Shown piece after piece: positions 7,185 through 56,733 of a stretch of 64,000 nucleotides of DNA. Both the position numbers and the translations under genes were made by a program. The notes beneath the pieces are model-generated. The model worked only from the letters and a program-made list of their open reading frames with translations, was not told the origin of the DNA and searched no databases. Origin of the DNA: Erysipelotrichaceae bacterium (lineage in GTDB: Bacteria > Bacillota_I > Bacilli_A > Erysipelotrichales > Erysipelotrichaceae); the NCBI GenBank assembly GCA_050950925.1, contig JBMNIN010000001.1, positions 87,638-151,637 of the forward strand, written 5' to 3'. Each line of letters starts with the position of its first letter. The stretch's first letter is position 1.

Positions 7185-7259
7185 TGGCGCCCCCTGCGAG
7201 AATCGAACTCACAACTAACCCTTAGGAGGGGTTTATTATATCCATTTAACTAAAGGGGC
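7185..7259 (-). tRNA. tRNA-Arg (anticodon CCU)
   Basis: Hand-folded 75-nt cloverleaf. Acceptor GCCCCUU/AGGGGGC, D stem GUUA/UAAU, anticodon stem AACCC/GGGUU with loop CU-CCU-AA, T arm GUGAG-UUCGAUU-CUCGC, discriminator G, encoded CCA. Confidence 0.9.
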
Positions 7260-17563: not shown

Positions 17564-17672
17564 AAAAAAACACCTTTCCACAGGTGCCAAGAAACTTAGA
17601 TCTTCCTACGCTGGCATTAACCAGATCAGGTCTAAGGGTATTTCTCAGCATTACGCACCCCTGTCTTGTACT
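17564..17672 (-). promoter_or_regulatory. TPP (THI-box) riboswitch with terminator/SD-sequestering expression platform
   Basis: Minus strand reads GGGGUGCGUAAUGCUGAGAAAUACCCUUAGACCUGAUCUGGUUAAUGCCAGCGUAGGAAG, which carries all conserved THI-box blocks. It is followed by CACCU-guggaa-AGGUG plus U7, abutting the thiT AUG. Confidence 0.9.
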
Positions 17673-51192: not shown

Positions 51193-51775
51193 CCTCTATT
51201 TCCTCTTCTCTTATATTTATTGTAAAACTATTTTATAAATACTCTGACACATCTTGATATTACACAGAAATCACTGGTAAAGTTAAGTTTAACAGCGCTC
51301 TCATTAAAACGCATGTTCATTTGAATTATATCATAATCTCAGTTATATTCATAATTCAGCATATTTTACCTGTGACTTCAAAAAAATACCTTCTAATGCT
51401 TCTATATCAATTTCATAATAAAAAATTGAGCCCTGCTTAATTTTTTTTCTCTGTGGAAAAGATAAGTAGCTTTAATAATAAATTTGTGAACATTTTGTAC
51501 TCTTTTATACCTAAATAATACCGTTTACAGGGATTTATTGGTATTTTTGAAACAATAATTATTATAATTGTATTTAGTTCGTATGTAAAAAAACACTAGT
51601 TTGTTTCAACAGTTTAACATCAGCACTTAACATATGTTCCTTGTCTGCCAGTACTGAATCCTTTTCTAAATCATACCTAAAATGGTTAAAAATAAAAAAA
51701 CCTTTATTGATATGATCCCTCCAAAGTAGACACACGAAATATACAAAAGTGAGTTTACAGAGGAGGGATTTTATT

Positions 51776-52495
51776 ATGGGAAGAAAACCAAAGTTATCTT
51801 ATAAAGAAAAGATACAAGTGGTAGAAGATTATCTAAACGGAAAAGAAAGTGCCGTAAATATTGCCAGAAAATTAAATTTAGGAAGGTGGGGAAAACGACA
51901 GATACTAAAATGGGTAAGAAAATATCAGACCAATGGTCCGGAAGCACTACTTTCTAAAGGAAGAAATAACAGCTATACAAAAGAATTTAAACAAACGGTT
52001 GTCGAAGAATACCTGAACGGTGAAGGTTCTTTGGAAGATTTGGCGCTAAAACATCAAATACCAGCACCTTCTACAATATTAAACTGGATTTCAAAGTATA
52101 ATAACCTTAAGGAACTGAAGGATTATAATCCTGAACCGGAGGTGTATACAAAGATGGCATATCGCAAGAAAACGACCCTGGAAGAAAGAAAAGAAATAGT
52201 AAATTACTGCCTGGATAATAACAGAGACTATAAGACAGCAGCCTTAAGATATGATGTTTCATATTCACAGGTATACAGCTGGGTTAAAAAGTATTTATCG
52301 GAAGGCGAAGAAGGACTCATAGATTGTCGAGGAAAACGAAAACTTGAATCTCAACTGACTGAACTGGAAAAATATCAAAGGAAAGTGAAAATACTTGAAG
52401 CTAAAGTAAGAGAACTGGAAATGGAGAAAGAACTGTTAAAAAAAGTTCAGGAAATCGAAAGGAGGCGATCTTTTCAAAAACGAAAAATGAAGTAA
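51776..52495 (+). CDS. IS3-family transposase OrfA (HTH domains plus leucine zipper)
   Basis: ATG at 51776 follows GAGGAGGGA. Two HTH-like segments and a C-terminal coiled coil (LEAKVRELEMEKELLKK). Confidence 0.8.
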   Translation: MGRKPKLSYKEKIQVVEDYLNGKESAVNIARKLNLGRWGKRQILKWVRKYQTNGPEALLSKGRNNSYTKEFKQTVVEEYLNGEGSLEDLALKHQIPAPSTILNWISKYNNLKELKDYNPEPEVYTKMAYRKKTTLEERKEIVNYCLDNNRDYKTAALRYDVSYSQVYSWVKKYLSEGEEGLIDCRGKRKLESQLTELEKYQRKVKILEAKVRELEMEKELLKKVQEIERRRSFQKRKMK

Positions 52496-53472
52496 AATAT
52501 CTGGCGATTAAAGAGCTCAATGAAAAAAAGAATTACAGTTTACAGTGGATGTGTGAGAAGCTGAATGTATCCAGAGCAGCCTATTACAGGTGGCTGAACA
52601 GAGAAATACCGCAAAAGGAGCTGGAAGACATTGAATTGGGCAGACTGGTTTTAGAATATCATCAGAAATACGGAGGAATCCTTGGCTACAGAAGAATGAC
52701 AATGTTTATTAATCGTCATTATAATAAAAACTATAAATACAAAAGAATTCGTCGAATCATGAGAATTGCAGGTGTAAGTTCAACTATCAAGAGAGTAAGA
52801 AAGTGTTGTACAGTATCAAATAAAACTGATCAGAAAGCCGAAAACATTCTCAATCGTAACTTTGAAGCCTTCGCTCCAAATGAAAAGTGGACAACTGACG
52901 TTTGTGAACTGATTATACCGAAGAGCAACAGTAAGATGTATCTGAGCGCGTTTCTGGACCTGTATGATCGTTCTATTGTCGGATGGCAGCTGAGCAGGAC
53001 TAACGATAATAAACTGGTGTTTGATACCTTGAACAAAGCTATTGAAACTAATCCGGAAGCCCAGCCATTATTTCATAGTGATAGAGGTTATCAATATACC
53101 AGCCCGGCATTTAGAAATAAACTTAAACAGCTTGGCATACAGCAGTCAATGTCAAGAGTTGGCATGTGTATAGATAACTGTCCTTCAGAAGGACTGTGGG
53201 GCATTATTAAAGATGAGATGTATCAGATGTATGATATATACGATGAACAGTCCCTGATCCAGGCTTTAACAGATTATATGGAGTTTTATAATCATCATCG
53301 CTATCAGGAAAGATATGACTGTAAGGCACCTATGGAAGTAAGATCAGAGGCTTTACAGACCGAGGTACCTAAAAGGTATCCGATACCTGTTAACAGACGT
53401 ATTGAAAAATACAAAGCTGATTTGGCAAGTAAAAACCAAACCGAATCTTCGGCTGGGTCAGCATTATTTTAG
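52444..53472 (+). CDS. IS3-family transposase OrfB (DDE integrase core), expressed as OrfAB by -1 frameshift
   Basis: The -1 frame is open from the A7 run at 52438-52444 (KKSSGNRKEAIFSKTKNEVKYLAIKEL...). DDE core motifs WTTDVCEL and HSDRGYQYTS are present. Confidence 0.8.
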   Translation, partial: SSGNRKEAIFSKTKNEVKYLAIKELNEKKNYSLQWMCEKLNVSRAAYYRWLNREIPQKELEDIELGRLVLEYHQKYGGILGYRRMTMFINRHYNKNYKYKRIRRIMRIAGVSSTIKRVRKCCTVSNKTDQKAENILNRNFEAFAPNEKWTTDVCELIIPKSNSKMYLSAFLDLYDRSIVGWQLSRTNDNKLVFDTLNKAIETNPEAQPLFHSDRGYQYTSPAFRNKLKQLGIQQSMSRVGMCIDNCPSEGLWGIIKDEMYQMYDIYDEQSLIQALTDYMEFYNHHRYQERYDCKAPMEVRSEALQTEVPKRYPIPVNRRIEKYKADLASKNQTESSAGSALF

Positions 53473-53526: not shown

Positions 53527-53550
53527 TGGTGGAGGCGAGGGGAGTTGATT
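53527..53550 (-). other. Possible displaced tRNA 3'-end fragment marking the prophage attachment site (attR)
   Basis: Plus strand TGGTGGAGGCGAGGGGAGTTGA is the reverse complement of ...CCCCU-CGCCUCC-A-CCA (T-stem 3' half, acceptor 3' strand, discriminator, CCA). No matching 5' half is nearby. GC-rich island in AT-rich DNA. Confidence 0.35.
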
Positions 53551-53663: not shown

Positions 53664-53690
53664 CTAAAAAACCGCTGTTGGTTAGCGGTT
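53664..53690 (-). terminator. Intrinsic terminator after the DUF3800-like gene
   Basis: Minus strand ACCGCT-aaccaac-AGCGGT followed by TTTTTT, starting at the stop codon. Confidence 0.7.
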
Positions 53691-54379
53691 TATGGGAAAT
53701 AATTTATATTTAAGTTATTGATTTCTCTCAAATTATTAATTTTTGAATTTGTAACGCAATAATAAATTCTATTAGCAATTATATCTGAAGCTCTAATTAA
53801 ACATTGTTTTTCTGAATTACAATAATTTAAGTTTAATTCTTTCATATTTGTAAATATAGGTGGATAATAGGTCATATATTTATAATTAGTTGTCCCAATT
53901 TTTAATTCTTGTTCTAGGGCTTCTCTCAATTCATATCTGCCATCAGTCGCAGTTGAGTGCTGATCAACATTAAAATAAATTTTTATTTGTTCATGTTCAT
54001 TTAATATGCCTTTTGATATCAAGTCTTTTAGCGCTCTTTTTATAGCAATTTTATACACATAATCAAGATATCTTTGTTTAGATTTTTTATCGATAAATAT
54101 TTTGTCGTGTACGTTTTTCTGATTGATAATAGCGCAAAATTTATAACATTCTTTCATTACGTTGAAAAGTTTTCTTTTATCATTATTGGTAGCTCGACAT
54201 GCTTTTATTTCAGTACCACTTCGATAATTATGTTTAATACTTTTTTCCGCACCAATATATTTATTGGACCACCTTATTTTTTCATTGTCGCCTATAATAA
54301 TTATTCCAGCAAAAACAAAATAATCGTTATGTACTTTATCAAATGTGCCACTTTCGTCACTGTAAACATAAATCCTCAT
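53690..54379 (-). CDS. DUF3800-like protein
   Basis: ATG at 54379 lies 5 nt after AAGGTGG. N-terminal IYVYSDESG plus FVFAGI fits my recollection of DUF3800. 229 aa. Confidence 0.6.
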   Translation of the reverse strand: MRIYVYSDESGTFDKVHNDYFVFAGIIIIGDNEKIRWSNKYIGAEKSIKHNYRSGTEIKACRATNNDKRKLFNVMKECYKFCAIINQKNVHDKIFIDKKSKQRYLDYVYKIAIKRALKDLISKGILNEHEQIKIYFNVDQHSTATDGRYELREALEQELKIGTTNYKYMTYYPPIFTNMKELNLNYCNSEKQCLIRASDIIANRIYYCVTNSKINNLREINNLNINYFP

Positions 54380-54394
54380 TAATTCCACCTTATT

Positions 54395-54491
54395 AAAAAA
54401 CCACTCAAATGAGTGGCATCGAGGCCGACGTACTTACAGTACGCTTAACCGTTAAGTCAGTAACTCGATTTGACAGCGTATCTCTACCTGC
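54395..54491 (-). ncRNA. Putative ~95-nt structured RNA (sRNA or cis-leader of the DUF3800-like gene)
   Basis: Lies downstream of a TTGACA-N18-CATAAT promoter. Outer helix AUCGAG/CUCGAU encloses hairpins CUUAA-cgg-UUAAG and CGUAC-uguaa-GUACG. Then terminator CCACUC-auuu-GAGUGG plus U6, ending 4 nt before the DUF3800 RBS. Confidence 0.45.
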
Positions 54492-54497
54492 AAGTTT

Positions 54498-54527
54498 ATT
54501 ATGAGTTATTTAGGGTTGATTTGTCAA
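54498..54527 (-). promoter_or_regulatory. Sigma-A-type promoter for the structured RNA / DUF3800-like gene
   Basis: Minus strand TTGACA (54527-54522), 18-nt spacer, CATAAT (54503-54498). Confidence 0.5.
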
Positions 54528-54620
54528 TAATTTTTAGCGAAATTTATCATTTTTTCATATTTTACAATGGTTTTTAATCATTTTCAGTTGATTTCAGTAA
54601 ATTAAATGTCGTTAAAAAAA

Positions 54621-54755
54621 CTACTTTTGTTGTAGGTCTTTTATAATCAAATCAATGATATAAGCAGTTAAAGTTTTATATTCTTTCTCGGCTTTTTCTT
54701 TAGCTTGCTTTTTTAAGTCTGGGTGGATTCTGATTTGAATATATTCAGTTTTCAT
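54621..54755 (-). CDS. 44-aa ribbon-helix-helix (CopG/Arc-like) protein, not in the supplied ORF track
   Basis: Hand translation: MKTEYIQIRIHPDLKKQAKEKAEKEYKTLTAYIIDLIIKDLQQK. Beta-strand then two helices, the RHH pattern. Its ATG (54755-54753) overlaps the TGA (54754-54752) of the upstream gene as ATGA. Confidence 0.6.
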   Translation of the reverse strand: MKTEYIQIRIHPDLKKQAKEKAEKEYKTLTAYIIDLIIKDLQQK

Positions 54756-55369
54756 TCGATTTCACCACTTTCAACTTTATCAGCTAAAGTTTTAATGACA
54801 TTTTCAATTTTGTCATTTTCTTCGAACAATTCTTGATTTTCGTAGAATACATCTTCGTCATAATATTCAATTCCACGCGCTTCAAGCTCTGCACGAACGC
54901 ATTCATAAATGGTGTCGATATCGTAAATGCCGTAACTCCAGCCATTTTTAACGTCTTTAACTGACAACTCTAAGAAGTTTTTCCAATTTGCTTCGTGGTC
55001 ATCGATGTGTAAATCTCTTACATTTTTTAATTCGTAAAATGCAACTTGCCATAAATTCTCCGGAAGATTTACAATCATTGAATTAAATTGATCTACCAGT
55101 TTAGTGACTAATTTTTGGTCATCAACAGATTCATATAAATCATTAAATAATTCTTTTGTAGCTTCGTAATCAACGGCAATTTGCTCTACAACTTTTGCTT
55201 CGATCAGTTCTTCAAAAGAAGTAGAAATTACATTTTCGCAAACTAAGTTGTTTACGATTTCTGCGACAGATTCAGCCCAAAATCTAACTCTTCCATCTTT
55301 AGCGACAACTTCAAATCTGCCGCTGTTTTCAAATAAATTTTTGAAAGTAATGTTTAATTTGTTATTCAT
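54752..55369 (-). CDS. Highly acidic 205-aa hypothetical protein
   Basis: RBS AAGGAG lies 9 nt upstream. By hand count about 45 Asp+Glu versus about 20 Lys+Arg. No family recognised. Confidence 0.55.
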   Translation of the reverse strand: MNNKLNITFKNLFENSGRFEVVAKDGRVRFWAESVAEIVNNLVCENVISTSFEELIEAKVVEQIAVDYEATKELFNDLYESVDDQKLVTKLVDQFNSMIVNLPENLWQVAFYELKNVRDLHIDDHEANWKNFLELSVKDVKNGWSYGIYDIDTIYECVRAELEARGIEYYDEDVFYENQELFEENDKIENVIKTLADKVESGEIE

Positions 55370-55409
55370 GTTTTTTTTCTCCTTAGGGGATTACCCTTTC
55401 TTCAATTAT

Positions 55410-55438
55410 AGTATATCATGATGTAATGACGTTGTCAA
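55410..55438 (-). promoter_or_regulatory. Near-consensus sigma-A promoter of the acidic-protein/RHH operon
   Basis: Minus strand TTGACA (55438-55433), 17-nt spacer, TATACT (55415-55410), about 35 nt upstream of the RBS. Confidence 0.6.
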
Positions 55439-55499
55439 CACATTTTCGCAAAATAATTGAAAATATTTTAACTTTTTAAAATTTATGTTATGATTTAAC

Positions 55500-55533
55500 T
55501 GTAAATGTATGTAGTTGTCAAAATTCATTTACA
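55500..55533. promoter_or_regulatory. 8-bp perfect inverted repeat TGTAAATG-N18-CATTTACA spanning a second TTGACA box
   Basis: Arms at 55500-55507 and 55526-55533. On the minus strand TTGACA (55521-55516)-N17-TTAAAT lies between and over the arms. Candidate operator. Confidence 0.45.
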
Positions 55534-55592
55534 TGAGGGTTAACGGAAAAAGTGTTATTCATGTTTAAATATCCGTTAATCCTTTTTTTCTG

Positions 55593-55625
55593 CACAAAAA
55601 AAAGAGGGAGCATTTAAACTCCCCT
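55593..55625 (-). terminator. Intrinsic terminator of the lysis operon
   Basis: Minus strand GGGAG-uuuaaaug-CUCCC followed by U8, immediately after the endolysin stop. Confidence 0.75.
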
Positions 55626-56531
55626 TTACAATTTACTGATAAACTCTTTCAGCTGATCTAATTTGCTTTCAGCCTCATCTCTCTGTTTAATTAAAGCCTC
55701 TTTCTGCGATTGGTATATCGCAATATCCTGCTTCAAGTCTTCAATTCTTTTGTTTGCAGTTTCCATTTTTCTAATCATCTCCTTTTTTTCATTCTCATAA
55801 ACTGTTTTCAAATCGTCATACAGCGATTTATAATCCATGTACTCATCATCACTGCTCATCAGTGCGACCCAGAAATCAGGGCTGATATTTGCCCATCTGT
55901 AATTTCCCGCTTTCTGAACATCGTAAACGTTGTATAAACCACGTTTACACCTTTCCGGATAAACTTCACCGTTCGGCATTTTTCTAAGGTTTCGTGTATC
56001 GGAATTAATCCGTACCTGATACACTTCTTCATTCCTTTCAACCGGTTCAGGATATTCACTCATCCATTTTGGAGTGAACTTGTCGCTGAATCTGTATTTT
56101 CTTTTTCTGTCACAATACAGAAACGGAAGCGGGTTTATTGCTAAACCACGCATTGTGCTCCAGTTGTATTTTTTTGTTGTAACTTTTGTTAAATACAAGT
56201 GCAGATGATTACCGTTGCTTTTGCCGGTGTTACCCATGATTCCGATAACATCACCCATTTTAACTTTTTCACCTTTTTTTAGAACTGGCAGTTTGTGAAG
56301 ATGGATATAGCCTGTCCAGAAGTGCTCTTTTTCATTTAGCCTGTGTTCAAGCACAATCAGATTTCCCATTTCAGTAGCAAATCTTACATCAACAACAACT
56401 CCGTCATCACAAGCCAGTATCGGCTGATACAGATTGATAATCCAGCCGAAATCAACACCCAGATGAACCTTTTCATGAAAGTAATATGTAATGTTTACTT
56501 CGTCAACGGGAATAAGTAATTCCTTATTCAT
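55626..56531 (-). CDS. Endolysin: M23 peptidase plus SH3-like region plus C-terminal coiled coil
   Basis: M23 motifs HLGVDFG and GNHLHLYL. The start MNKELL at 56531 overlaps the holin 3' end by 8 nt. The last ~70 aa are heptad-rich (IEDLKQDIAIYQSQKEALIKQRDEAESKLDQLKEF). Confidence 0.8.
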   Translation of the reverse strand: MNKELLIPVDEVNITYYFHEKVHLGVDFGWIINLYQPILACDDGVVVDVRFATEMGNLIVLEHRLNEKEHFWTGYIHLHKLPVLKKGEKVKMGDVIGIMGNTGKSNGNHLHLYLTKVTTKKYNWSTMRGLAINPLPFLYCDRKRKYRFSDKFTPKWMSEYPEPVERNEEVYQVRINSDTRNLRKMPNGEVYPERCKRGLYNVYDVQKAGNYRWANISPDFWVALMSSDDEYMDYKSLYDDLKTVYENEKKEMIRKMETANKRIEDLKQDIAIYQSQKEALIKQRDEAESKLDQLKEFISKL

Positions 56532-56733
56532 TTTCTTTTTTGTAATAATTGGCATTGGATACACCGATAAGTGTCCCAATAAGAACTCCAACAGCGTTTA
56601 AAGTAGTAACTATTTCATCAACGTAAGGAAGCCCCCATGCTTCACCCAGCACGTTGTAAAAAACTGCCAGTGCCGGCAAAGCAATTAAGCCTGTCCACTT
56701 TAAAGCGTCATACCATCCATTTTTTAAAATCAT
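56524..56733 (-). CDS. Holin (phi LC3-family-like)
   Basis: 69 aa with two TM helices. Sequence YDALKWTGLIALPALAVFYNVLGEAWGLPY...IVTTLNAVGVLIGTLIGVS matches my recollection of the phiLC3 holin family. Lies directly upstream of the endolysin. Confidence 0.75.
   Translation of the reverse strand: MILKNGWYDALKWTGLIALPALAVFYNVLGEAWGLPYVDEIVTTLNAVGVLIGTLIGVSNANYYKKENE

Follow-up and report, generated by a model that had tools for sequence, protein, structure and literature searches.

Type III toxin-antitoxin and abortive-infection systems of the ToxIN kind, which are carried on mobile elements, consist of a constitutive promoter, a non-coding RNA, an intrinsic terminator and a nuclease gene that is expressed by read-through. 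Structured RNAs are also known from the vicinity of genes for DUF3800 proteins. The DUF3800-I RNA was described in 2017 on either side and either strand of such genes and rarely in 5′ untranslated regions (UTRs); it was judged an improbable riboswitch, no self-cleavage was seen and no function was proposed, and with ten further unrelated RNA motifs near DUF3800 genes the number of folds is eleven in all (Weinberg et al., PMC5737381). The DUF3800 domain has been described as an RNase H-like fold (PMC10910872) and as the effector of type VII retrons (Mestre et al. 2020, PMC7736814); some Cas12a2 and Cas12a3 loci have TPR-DUF3800 proteins as accessories (PMC10910872; bioRxiv 10.64898/2026.01.16.699850), and some tools flag prophage DUF3800 genes as 'Retron_VII_2' (bioRxiv 10.1101/2025.01.07.631744). 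Our literature searches returned no work testing the function of the DUF3800-I RNA or of a DUF3800 protein. Among anti-defence operons, those regulated by the ribbon-helix-helix (RHH) protein Aca14 have a repeat over the −10 element, and their autorepression has been shown experimentally (bioRxiv 10.64898/2026.07.27.740549). In the present work, we have analyzed a stretch of 64,000 nucleotides from an Erysipelotrichaceae bacterium (assembly GCA_050950925.1, contig JBMNIN010000001.1, positions 87,638 to 151,637 of the forward strand), hereafter the window, and in it an interval at the end of a prophage that an initial annotation had described as one self-promoted cassette encoding an acidic protein of 205 amino acids (aa), a hidden RHH protein, a structured RNA and a DUF3800-like protein.

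It can be stated with very high confidence that this interval comprises two independent modules. Module A consists of a promoter, the gene for the acidic protein and the RHH gene, and module B of a second promoter, a DUF3800-I RNA, a terminator, the DUF3800 gene and a further terminator. For the interval as a whole we lean, with some reserve, towards an explanation in which two unrelated, self-contained accessory modules were placed side by side in the lysin-to-attachment-site hotspot of an Erysipelotrichaceae prophage, module A being acr-aca-like and module B an RNA-restrained nuclease. All of the elements in the initial annotation (the promoters, the acidic open reading frame (ORF), the hidden RHH gene, the structured RNA and the DUF3800 gene) were found where it had placed them. 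The features of the two modules, all of them on the minus strand and numbered by window position, are as follows.

54612–55556, minus strand: module A recombination unit (promoter, acidic gene, RHH gene), from blastn block boundaries
55410–55438, minus strand: module A promoter, TTGACA-17-TATACT with a TG-extended −10 (−35 TTGACA at 55438–55433, −10 TATACT at 55415–55410), scoring 11/12 in the promoter scan
55412–55425, no strand assigned: candidate RHH operator, an inverted repeat TACATCA/TGATATA over the −10 hexamer, from repeat analysis
55385–55397, minus strand: small 5′-UTR hairpin AGGG-TAATC-CCCT just before the Shine-Dalgarno sequence AAGGAG (55384–55379), read from the sequence
54752–55369, minus strand: acidic orphan protein, 205 aa, net charge −25, isoelectric point (pI) 4.3, from the ORF list
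54621–54755, minus strand: RHH protein, 44 aa, ATGA-coupled to the acidic gene, a probable autorepressor, from the ORF list and family profiles
53667–54563, minus strand: module B recombination unit (promoter, DUF3800-I RNA, terminator, DUF3800 gene, terminator), a 90%-identical block with the same limits in the loci L035 and L026
54498–54527, minus strand: RNA promoter, TTGACA-18-CATAAT, scoring 11/12 in the promoter scan
54390–54498, minus strand: DUF3800-I RNA (Rfam RF02969) with a terminator hairpin at 54417–54400, from the Rfam match; probable transcript about 54491–54395
53690–54379, minus strand: DUF3800 protein, 229 aa when counted from the ATG at 54379 (GTG 54388 and 232 aa in the ORF list)
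53666–53690, minus strand: terminator after the DUF3800 gene, AACCGCT-loop-AGCGGTT and then a T-run, seen by eye and missed by the terminator scan

The separateness of the two modules is evident from the limits of the DNA that they share with other phages. Two loci (L030 and L031) are 99.4% identical to the window across 55556–54612 and diverge immediately past both limits in blastn alignments, with a convergent lysin gene in place of DUF3800 beyond 54612; more distant copies of module A align over 55487–54612. In L035, module B directly follows the lysin gene and is itself followed by attP and an integrase gene, and module A is absent. The recombination breakpoints hence fall exactly between the modules, at 54612 and 54563.

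The distribution of the two modules gives the same picture. Module A is present on about 30 phage contigs with the same promoter and an ATGA-coupled RHH gene of 43–44 aa, and it occupies three settings there: lying on the opposite strand, with small-terminase or DNA-methyltransferase genes to one side and a late regulator to the other; divergent from a Cro-YqaJ-RecT-SSB early operon; or after the lysin gene, as in the window. In a fourth setting, the most distant homologue of the acidic protein (P0014) is encoded by the first gene after a Cro-like gene and has no RHH neighbor. DUF3800 is absent from all of the approximately 30 module A contigs outside the window's own lineage, and tblastn searches with the acidic and RHH proteins against 85 DUF3800-bearing loci gave no match. 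Module B, for its part, is also found by itself, in an Oscillospiraceae genome between pth and tyrS and in an Erysipelotrichaceae genome beside a serine recombinase gene. Apart from the window, the order of A followed by B was seen only in L029, L032 and L033, which are 99.9–100% identical copies of the same lineage. Because the modules occur apart in all other occurrences, the trio of acidic protein, RHH and DUF3800 represents a lineage-specific juxtaposition, and co-conservation of the three genes, whose failure the initial annotation had named as grounds for abandoning its proposal, is not found. Each of the two pairs (acidic/RHH and RNA/DUF3800) is strongly conserved even though the trio is not. 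The suggestion of an undescribed system applies accordingly to one pair only: the acidic/RHH pair matches nothing described, but the RNA has been known as a companion of DUF3800 genes since 2017 (PMC5737381). Module A is a new and very small phage family with a familiar regulatory architecture, and module B an ordinary member of a described RNA-protein family.

The acidic protein of module A contains 45 aspartate and glutamate residues versus 20 lysine and arginine residues, exactly as counted by hand in the initial annotation, and it is the most acidic product among the 54 window ORFs of at least 150 aa; aromatic residues make up 12% of it. Only seven relatives were found among 5.8 billion clusters, all of them on phage-like contigs, and a profile search of 1.84 billion representative proteins returned just 5 clusters. 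Across the homologues the net charge stays between −19 and −26 while identity drops to 26%; it is the overall charge, rather than specific acidic positions, that is conserved in this family. No usable match to the protein was obtained in Pfam, PHROGs, PADLOC or NCBIfam, none in GenBank phages (tblastn and blastn), and a profile search of the PDB was empty. AlphaFold2 gave no usable model from 7 close sequences (predicted local distance difference test score, pLDDT, 53); with 8 more diverse sequences in the alignment the model reached a pLDDT of 83.8 and a predicted template modeling score (pTM) of 0.72. A Foldseek search with this model against the PDB and BFVD returned nothing at E below 1, the best hits having TM-scores below 0.25. 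A homology to structural or replication proteins, which would have counted against the initial annotation, was therefore not seen, the protein being without a family or fold relative in Pfam, PHROG, NCBIfam, PADLOC, PDB and BFVD. Taken together, the acidic/RHH pair gave no above-threshold match to a family of Pfam, PHROG, NCBIfam or PADLOC, and neither a GenBank phage record nor a solved structure corresponds to it. The PADLOC comparison that the initial annotation had recommended gave no match to the acidic protein, the RHH protein or the DUF3800 protein. One 43 aa homologue (P0015) is an in-frame internal deletion of the acidic protein in which the first 12 and last 31 residues are kept, a sign that the cargo gene may have recombined or decayed between its conserved flanks.

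The genes that neighbor module A include those for ParB-DNA methyltransferases and a Lar-like restriction-alleviation protein, and in two of its settings the acidic gene adjoins an exonuclease/RecT module. On one contig (L010, 4577–5359, minus strand), and also on L011 and L012, a 260 aa protein with an S-adenosylmethionine synthetase N-terminal domain (phrog_1569) is encoded beside a phage DNA methyltransferase and adjoining module A; this protein may belong to an anti-restriction cluster.

The module A promoter is one of only two on the minus strand that scored 11/12 in the promoter scan (55438–55410 and 54527–54498), the other being that of module B. Its −35 (TGTGTTGACA) and −10 (TATACTATAATTG) regions are invariant in an alignment of 7 divergent module A loci. 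The AGGG/CCCT stem of the small 5′-UTR hairpin becomes GAGG/CCTC elsewhere, with both sides compensated, which is weak evidence, as there are two variants only; the hairpin could be a stabilizing or regulatory element. The RHH gene starts within the stop codon of the acidic gene, the two overlapping as ATGA. Its product, annotated by NCBI as a hypothetical protein (P0010), has profile matches that all fall below the curated thresholds, viz. the Pfam families NikA-like, HicB and TacA1 (E about 4e-4), a PHROG Arc-like repressor family and the NCBIfam YlcI/YnfO. It is 77–88% identical across loci where the cargo is only 32% identical, and at the DNA level the only parts that can be aligned among diverged copies of module A are the promoter, the first few codons, and the last approximately 45 codons of the cargo together with the RHH gene. 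In two sets of loci (L034, and L030/L031), cargo genes that are nearly identical are followed by RHH genes whose C-terminal halves differ (…KKKIQ…RKDLDK, or a 48 aa form ending HDNFIK), and recombination breakpoints therefore lie inside the RHH gene also.

The residues of the β-strand are the base-reading positions of RHH proteins, and in module A they vary together with the promoter spacer. In all 26 of the 26 copies that have this promoter frame, the type of spacer co-segregates with the β-strand residues of the RHH protein: the strand TEYIQ pairs with the spacer TA(T/C)ATCATGATATA and the strand NENIH with AGTATAAtgTTATACT, a pairing that holds even across differing cargo alleles, and a third variant, KEQIH (L020), has a third spacer. 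In each spacer type there is a repeat with arms of 7 bp, and the −10 hexamer makes up its right arm. Because this inverted repeat changes together with the β-strand residues, the RHH protein probably represses its own promoter at the −10 repeat. Within the window the candidate operator recurs nowhere else. The AT-rich palindromes upstream of the −35 element were also considered as operators and were set aside, as they are indistinguishable from background in AT-rich DNA.

Searches for further relatives of the operon added little. An exact-pattern search of IMG/VR with the module A promoter and RHH-based locus searches of IMG/VR and GTDB genomes returned nothing, and a metagenome scan for the promoter frame gave no new cargo genes, its yield being two known module A contigs and four cro promoters of unrelated phages. 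In the latter, the 23 fixed bases of the frame (TGTGTTGACA-N17-TATACTATAATTG) are found at L115 12243–12282, L117 654–693, L119 61–100 and L120 2235–2274, on four metagenome contigs where the promoter drives a 75 aa Cro-like gene divergent from a CI-like gene and where the spacer carries GGGAAC/GTTCCC operator-like repeats. From these sequences, one strong early-promoter frame appears to carry different operators.

The RNA of module B is a full-length match to RF02969, covering model positions 1–115 of 115 at 95.3 bits (gathering score 44.2). Its fold has a z-score of −2.9 and beats all 200 shuffles, and among 53 distinct homologues 17 of the 23 base pairs show compensatory changes, with 97.8% of cells paired against 29–46% in slid controls. 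A Rho-independent terminator (54417–54400) closes the 3′ end. The DUF3800 protein matches Pfam PF12686 at 47 bits (cut-off 21) and phrog_30113 at E 2e-62. Its alignment shows the conserved, catalytic-type carboxylates D8, E9, E57, D139 and D199; the D-E of the N-terminal YSDESG motif is present, and the C-terminal motif is RASD rather than QxxD, its D being invariant. Judging from the Shine-Dalgarno sequence AAGGTGG in front of it, the true start is likely the ATG at 54379.

When viral DUF3800 loci were scanned with a covariance model built in this analysis, the RNA lay directly upstream of the gene and on the same strand in 78 of the 80, the other two being cut off at the locus end. RNA model position 1 coincides with the end of the −10 hexamer in about 48 of 54 distinct loci, and the promoter has a mean score of 10.2 out of 12 (6.9 in control windows). 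The distance from the end of the RNA model to the ATG is 2–27 nucleotides (nt) with a median of 11 in these 54 loci and about 11 nt in the window, where the Shine-Dalgarno sequence stands directly after the U-run of the terminator. This spacing leaves no room for a promoter, and the DUF3800 gene can therefore be transcribed only by read-through of the terminator, so that the RNA would be in large excess. New relative to the 2017 description, and observed over 54 distinct loci, are the fixed promoter position, a spacing so tight that read-through is needed, and the location in prophage hotspots. In the Streptococcus phage Javan110 (L025, 2634–3873), the DUF3800 gene belongs to the lysogeny module, where it shares an overlap with the end of the preceding gene, annotated as a Cro/CI family regulator; the RNA here is located downstream of the DUF3800 gene and is hence not simply a leader. 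Typical neighbors of the DUF3800 module in viral loci are lysins, integrases, CI-like repressors and antirepressors. In L027 (3319–3507, minus strand), a 62 aa ORF of RHH-like appearance (…VSYTFKF…DADIIDSL…VRGLIIQLLRDYF) stands just upstream of another RNA/DUF3800 module; its sequence is unrelated to that of the RHH protein of the window.

The genes upstream of the cassette encode a major tail protein, a tape measure protein, Dit, tail proteins, a holin and an M23 endolysin, and the cassette therefore sits at the end of the prophage. Its surroundings include the following features.

55626–56591: M23 endolysin gene, from family identification
55605–55624, minus strand: intrinsic terminator of the endolysin gene and upstream boundary of the cassette, from the terminator scan
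53527–53550, no strand assigned: probable attachment (att) core, from comparison by eye with L035; it resembles a tRNA 3′-end fragment TGGTGGAGGCGAGGGGA, followed by a GATTTTAGTC arm

By eye, the GATTTTAGTC arm after the tRNA-like fragment is also present in the attP of L035, which lies at about 2540–2580 of that locus, matches the att core of the window and adjoins the integrase gene. A related prophage (L026, 917–998) is integrated at a tRNA gene. Directly outside the putative att core there is an IS3-family insertion sequence (51749–53472, plus strand; orfA 51749–52495, orfB 52549–53472), which may have interrupted the bacterial DNA next to the integration site. The argument that this part of the prophage, from lysis genes to att site, is a hotspot holds: elsewhere too, DUF3800 modules lie mostly between the lysin and the integrase or att site. 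The anatomy given in the initial annotation, with terminators on both sides of the cassette, is correct. Of these, the terminator at 55624–55605 was called by the scan, as was the one at 54417–54400, and the terminator at 53690–53666 was seen by eye only. Between the modules (54563–54621), no hairpin beyond the RHH gene of the window makes a convincing terminator, whereas in L001 and L008 the gene is followed by AAGACCT...AGGTCTT and a run of eight T's. Unrelated to the cassette are a thiamine pyrophosphate (TPP) riboswitch (63.7 bits, 17585–17672, minus strand) and a tRNA-Arg(CCT) gene (7185–7259, minus strand) in the chromosomal part of the window.

DNA-mimic inhibitors include Ocr, ArdA, Gam and T7 gp5.9, and lambda carries gam beside its exonuclease module. 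The acidic protein resembles these inhibitors in being very acidic, of phage origin and early or accessory, and in two settings its gene adjoins an exonuclease/RecT module, the place of gam in lambda; it differs from them in having no sequence or fold similarity to any PDB or BFVD chain, in being larger than most and in its richness in aromatic residues. The operon itself compares most directly with acr-aca operons. It likewise has a strong promoter, the cargo gene first, a small DNA-binding regulator last and an inverted repeat over the −10 element, here with 7-bp arms and co-changing with the β-strand of the regulator; it is likewise phage-borne, and its cargo diverges faster than its regulator. 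These likenesses are of architecture only, and module A differs in that no relative of its cargo was found in Pfam, PHROGs, NCBIfam, PADLOC, PDB or BFVD. In the mechanism that we propose, a strong promoter of the main-sigma-factor type would drive the acidic protein and, through translational coupling, the RHH protein, which would bind the inverted repeat over the −10 element and shut the operon down. The logic would be that of an acr-aca operon, viz. a burst of expression followed by autorepression, and the acidic protein could be an inhibitor of a DNA-binding protein of the host or of a competitor, with restriction enzymes or RecBCD/AddAB-type nucleases among the candidate targets. Since acidity is kept despite divergence, the neighbors are methyltransferase and Lar-like genes, an exonuclease/RecT module is adjacent in some settings and the layout is acr-aca-like, an early inhibitor of a DNA-binding protein fits better than a toxin. 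We infer that layout and neighboring genes agree better with an acr-aca-like anti-defence operon than with a toxin-antitoxin pair; by this analogy, an anti-defence role for module A is a tentative but serious possibility, and the likeliest of the roles considered.

For module B, the closest relative is the described DUF3800-I RNA/DUF3800 pair (RF02969) itself, from which the window copy shows no structural difference: it is full-length, has the 3′ terminator, adjoins a PF12686 gene and lies in a Firmicutes/phage context. The resemblance to toxin-antitoxin modules noted in the initial annotation has to be transferred to this module, as the RHH/acidic pair fits such a model poorly and the RNA plus DUF3800 has a type III-like layout. 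With ToxIN-type systems module B shares the order of promoter, RNA, terminator and gene, expression by read-through and carriage by mobile elements; it differs in its RNA, which is one complex, single-copy fold without the tandem direct repeats of type III systems, and in its protein, which is DUF3800 and not of the ToxN/AbiQ type. With type VII retrons it shares a DUF3800-domain effector paired with a structured nucleic acid, and it differs in having no flanking reverse transcriptase, no retron-type RNA and no PADLOC match; a reverse transcriptase is absent among the ORFs that flank DUF3800 in the window, L027 and L028 and among the Pfam families listed for the nearest neighbors in the viral loci. 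In the proposed mechanism, the positionally fixed promoter would make the DUF3800-I RNA of about 95 nt, the excess RNA would bind the RNase H-like DUF3800 nuclease and restrain it, as in a type III toxin-antitoxin system or a retron, and infection would release the nuclease, thus providing a prophage-encoded defence. That the RNA acts as a trans-acting partner of the DUF3800 protein, and not as a leader, we hold with good confidence; that the module is an RNA-restrained defence nuclease is suggested more tentatively, by analogy with these systems.

Several observations weigh against these interpretations. The roles of both modules are inferred from architecture and gene neighborhood. The acidic protein is unlike known anti-restriction, anti-CRISPR and Gam-type proteins in sequence or predicted fold (PDB, BFVD), and in this prophage module A sits at the lysogen-expressed end, a location that would equally suit a gene of benefit to the host. 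There is no significant similarity between the RHH protein and Aca14, the one Aca family compared (BLASTP E 0.006, with the alignment out of register), and as only three regulator/operator variants are known, their co-variation represents few independent events. In the case of module B, PADLOC gave no match, the RNA has a single complex fold and not the tandem repeats typical of type III antitoxins, and the RNase H-like fold is taken from the literature only, a PDB sequence search with the DUF3800 protein being empty. Lastly, transcription from the module A promoter may read through into the RNA/DUF3800 module in the window copy.

The alternatives to these readings can be considered in the order in which they stand up to the evidence. 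It is rather unlikely, though the least so of them, that the RNA scaffolds or guides the enzyme of module B, in the manner of the guide RNAs of transposon nucleases, or that the module belongs to a selfish element, with toxin-antitoxin logic playing no part in either case. An RNase H-like fold with a dedicated structured RNA does recall TnpB and IscB, TPR-DUF3800 proteins are found at Cas12a2/Cas12a3 loci (PMC10910872; bioRxiv 10.64898/2026.01.16.699850), and the module moves as a compact 0.9-kb unit, even to a site between pth and tyrS in a chromosome. However, no variable guide-like segment was seen in the RNA alignments that were read, the RNA is bounded by the promoter, which abuts helix 1, and by the terminator at its 3′ end, and no transposon ends or target duplications were noticed, although no systematic search for them was made.

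The main rivals to an anti-defence role for module A are an antirepressor function and a lysogen-expressed exclusion role. In the immI region of P22, a small RHH protein of the Arc type controls a strong promoter that drives a protein which inactivates CI-type repressors. Module A shares with this arc-ant unit the small Arc-type RHH protein, the strong promoter and an accessory protein outside the main immunity region, and it would then encode an inactivator of a CI-type repressor. The annotated PHROG families matched by the RHH protein are mostly Arc-like repressors; in L029–L031 module A lies beside a Cro region and a CI gene remnant; elsewhere, this hotspot holds genes of the antirepressor type (ORF6C, Rha, Bro-N) adjacent to module B; and an acidic DNA mimic could plausibly block the DNA-binding domain of a repressor. 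This function is nevertheless unlikely, as the order of the genes is reversed relative to arc-ant, none of the Ant, Bro, Rha and KilAC families resembles the acidic protein, and most copies of module A are far from the immunity region, beside methyltransferase and terminase genes. We regard as similarly unlikely that the acidic gene is expressed in the lysogen for the benefit of the host, e.g., in superinfection exclusion or defence, and not in counter-defence. Its own strong promoter of main-sigma-factor consensus and its place in the window, next to att and beside the candidate defence module B, would suit such a role; most copies, however, lie inside lytic-cycle regions on phage contigs, one homologue is encoded by the first gene of an early operon, the neighbors are of the anti-restriction type rather than defence genes, and PADLOC gave no significant match.

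A still less probable alternative is that the DUF3800-I RNA is solely a cis-acting leader of the attenuator or riboswitch-like kind. Its location directly upstream of the gene in 78 of 80 viral loci, with the terminator abutting the Shine-Dalgarno sequence, is what such a leader would show. Against it stand the downstream RNA of Javan110, the reported occurrence of the RNA on either side and in either orientation, rarely in 5′ UTRs and without self-cleavage (PMC5737381), and the eleven unrelated RNA folds that accompany DUF3800 genes, which argue for a partner of the protein.

That the acidic protein is a toxin and the RHH protein its antitoxin, the two forming a toxin-antitoxin pair of type II, is very improbable. 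The ATGA coupling of the two genes, the weak similarity of the RHH protein to the RHH parts of HicB, TacA (DUF1778) and NikA, and the frequency of such pairs at accessory-gene positions of prophages are in line with it. The matches, however, cover the DNA-binding domain only (profile positions 2–35 of 80 for TacA1 and 20–51 of 51 for HicB), and 44 aa leave no room for a toxin-neutralizing extension; the regulator is encoded second, the reverse of typical RHH antitoxin pairs; the partner, at pI 4.3, matches no toxin family or fold; and there exist both a homologue without an RHH neighbor (P0014) and an in-frame internal deletion of the cargo (P0015). The view that all four parts form one tripartite or quadripartite system, in which the RHH protein regulates its partner and gates the downstream RNA and DUF3800, can draw on their adjacency on one strand, the absence from the window of any strong terminator that would separate the RHH gene from the RNA promoter, and the shared order in L029, L032 and L033, but it is extremely improbable and already largely refuted by the distribution, since those three loci are copies of one lineage, the modules are separate everywhere else with breakpoints precisely between them, and the candidate RHH operator is present only once in the window.

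The distinction between the two modules, both of which are compact and clearly bounded, keeps a false 'new tripartite system' out of the catalogues. Module A adds a candidate anti-defence operon from the poorly studied phages of the Erysipelotrichaceae, with an acidic protein that has no detectable relatives in sequence or predicted fold and a repressor-operator pairing that can be read from natural variation. For the DUF3800 RNAs, known since 2017, the locus described here and its 54 distinct relatives define a minimal unit of 0.9 kb, viz. promoter, RNA, terminator and gene. A bolder proposal, which we consider doubtful, is that this unit represents a new class of RNA-controlled nuclease defence, in which a complex RNA would serve as antitoxin or sensor for an RNase H-fold effector, and that module A would represent a new-fold acidic inhibitor under the control of an Aca-type RHH protein of novel sequence. 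If true, such a class of RNA-controlled nucleases would explain why eleven unrelated RNA folds accompany DUF3800 genes.

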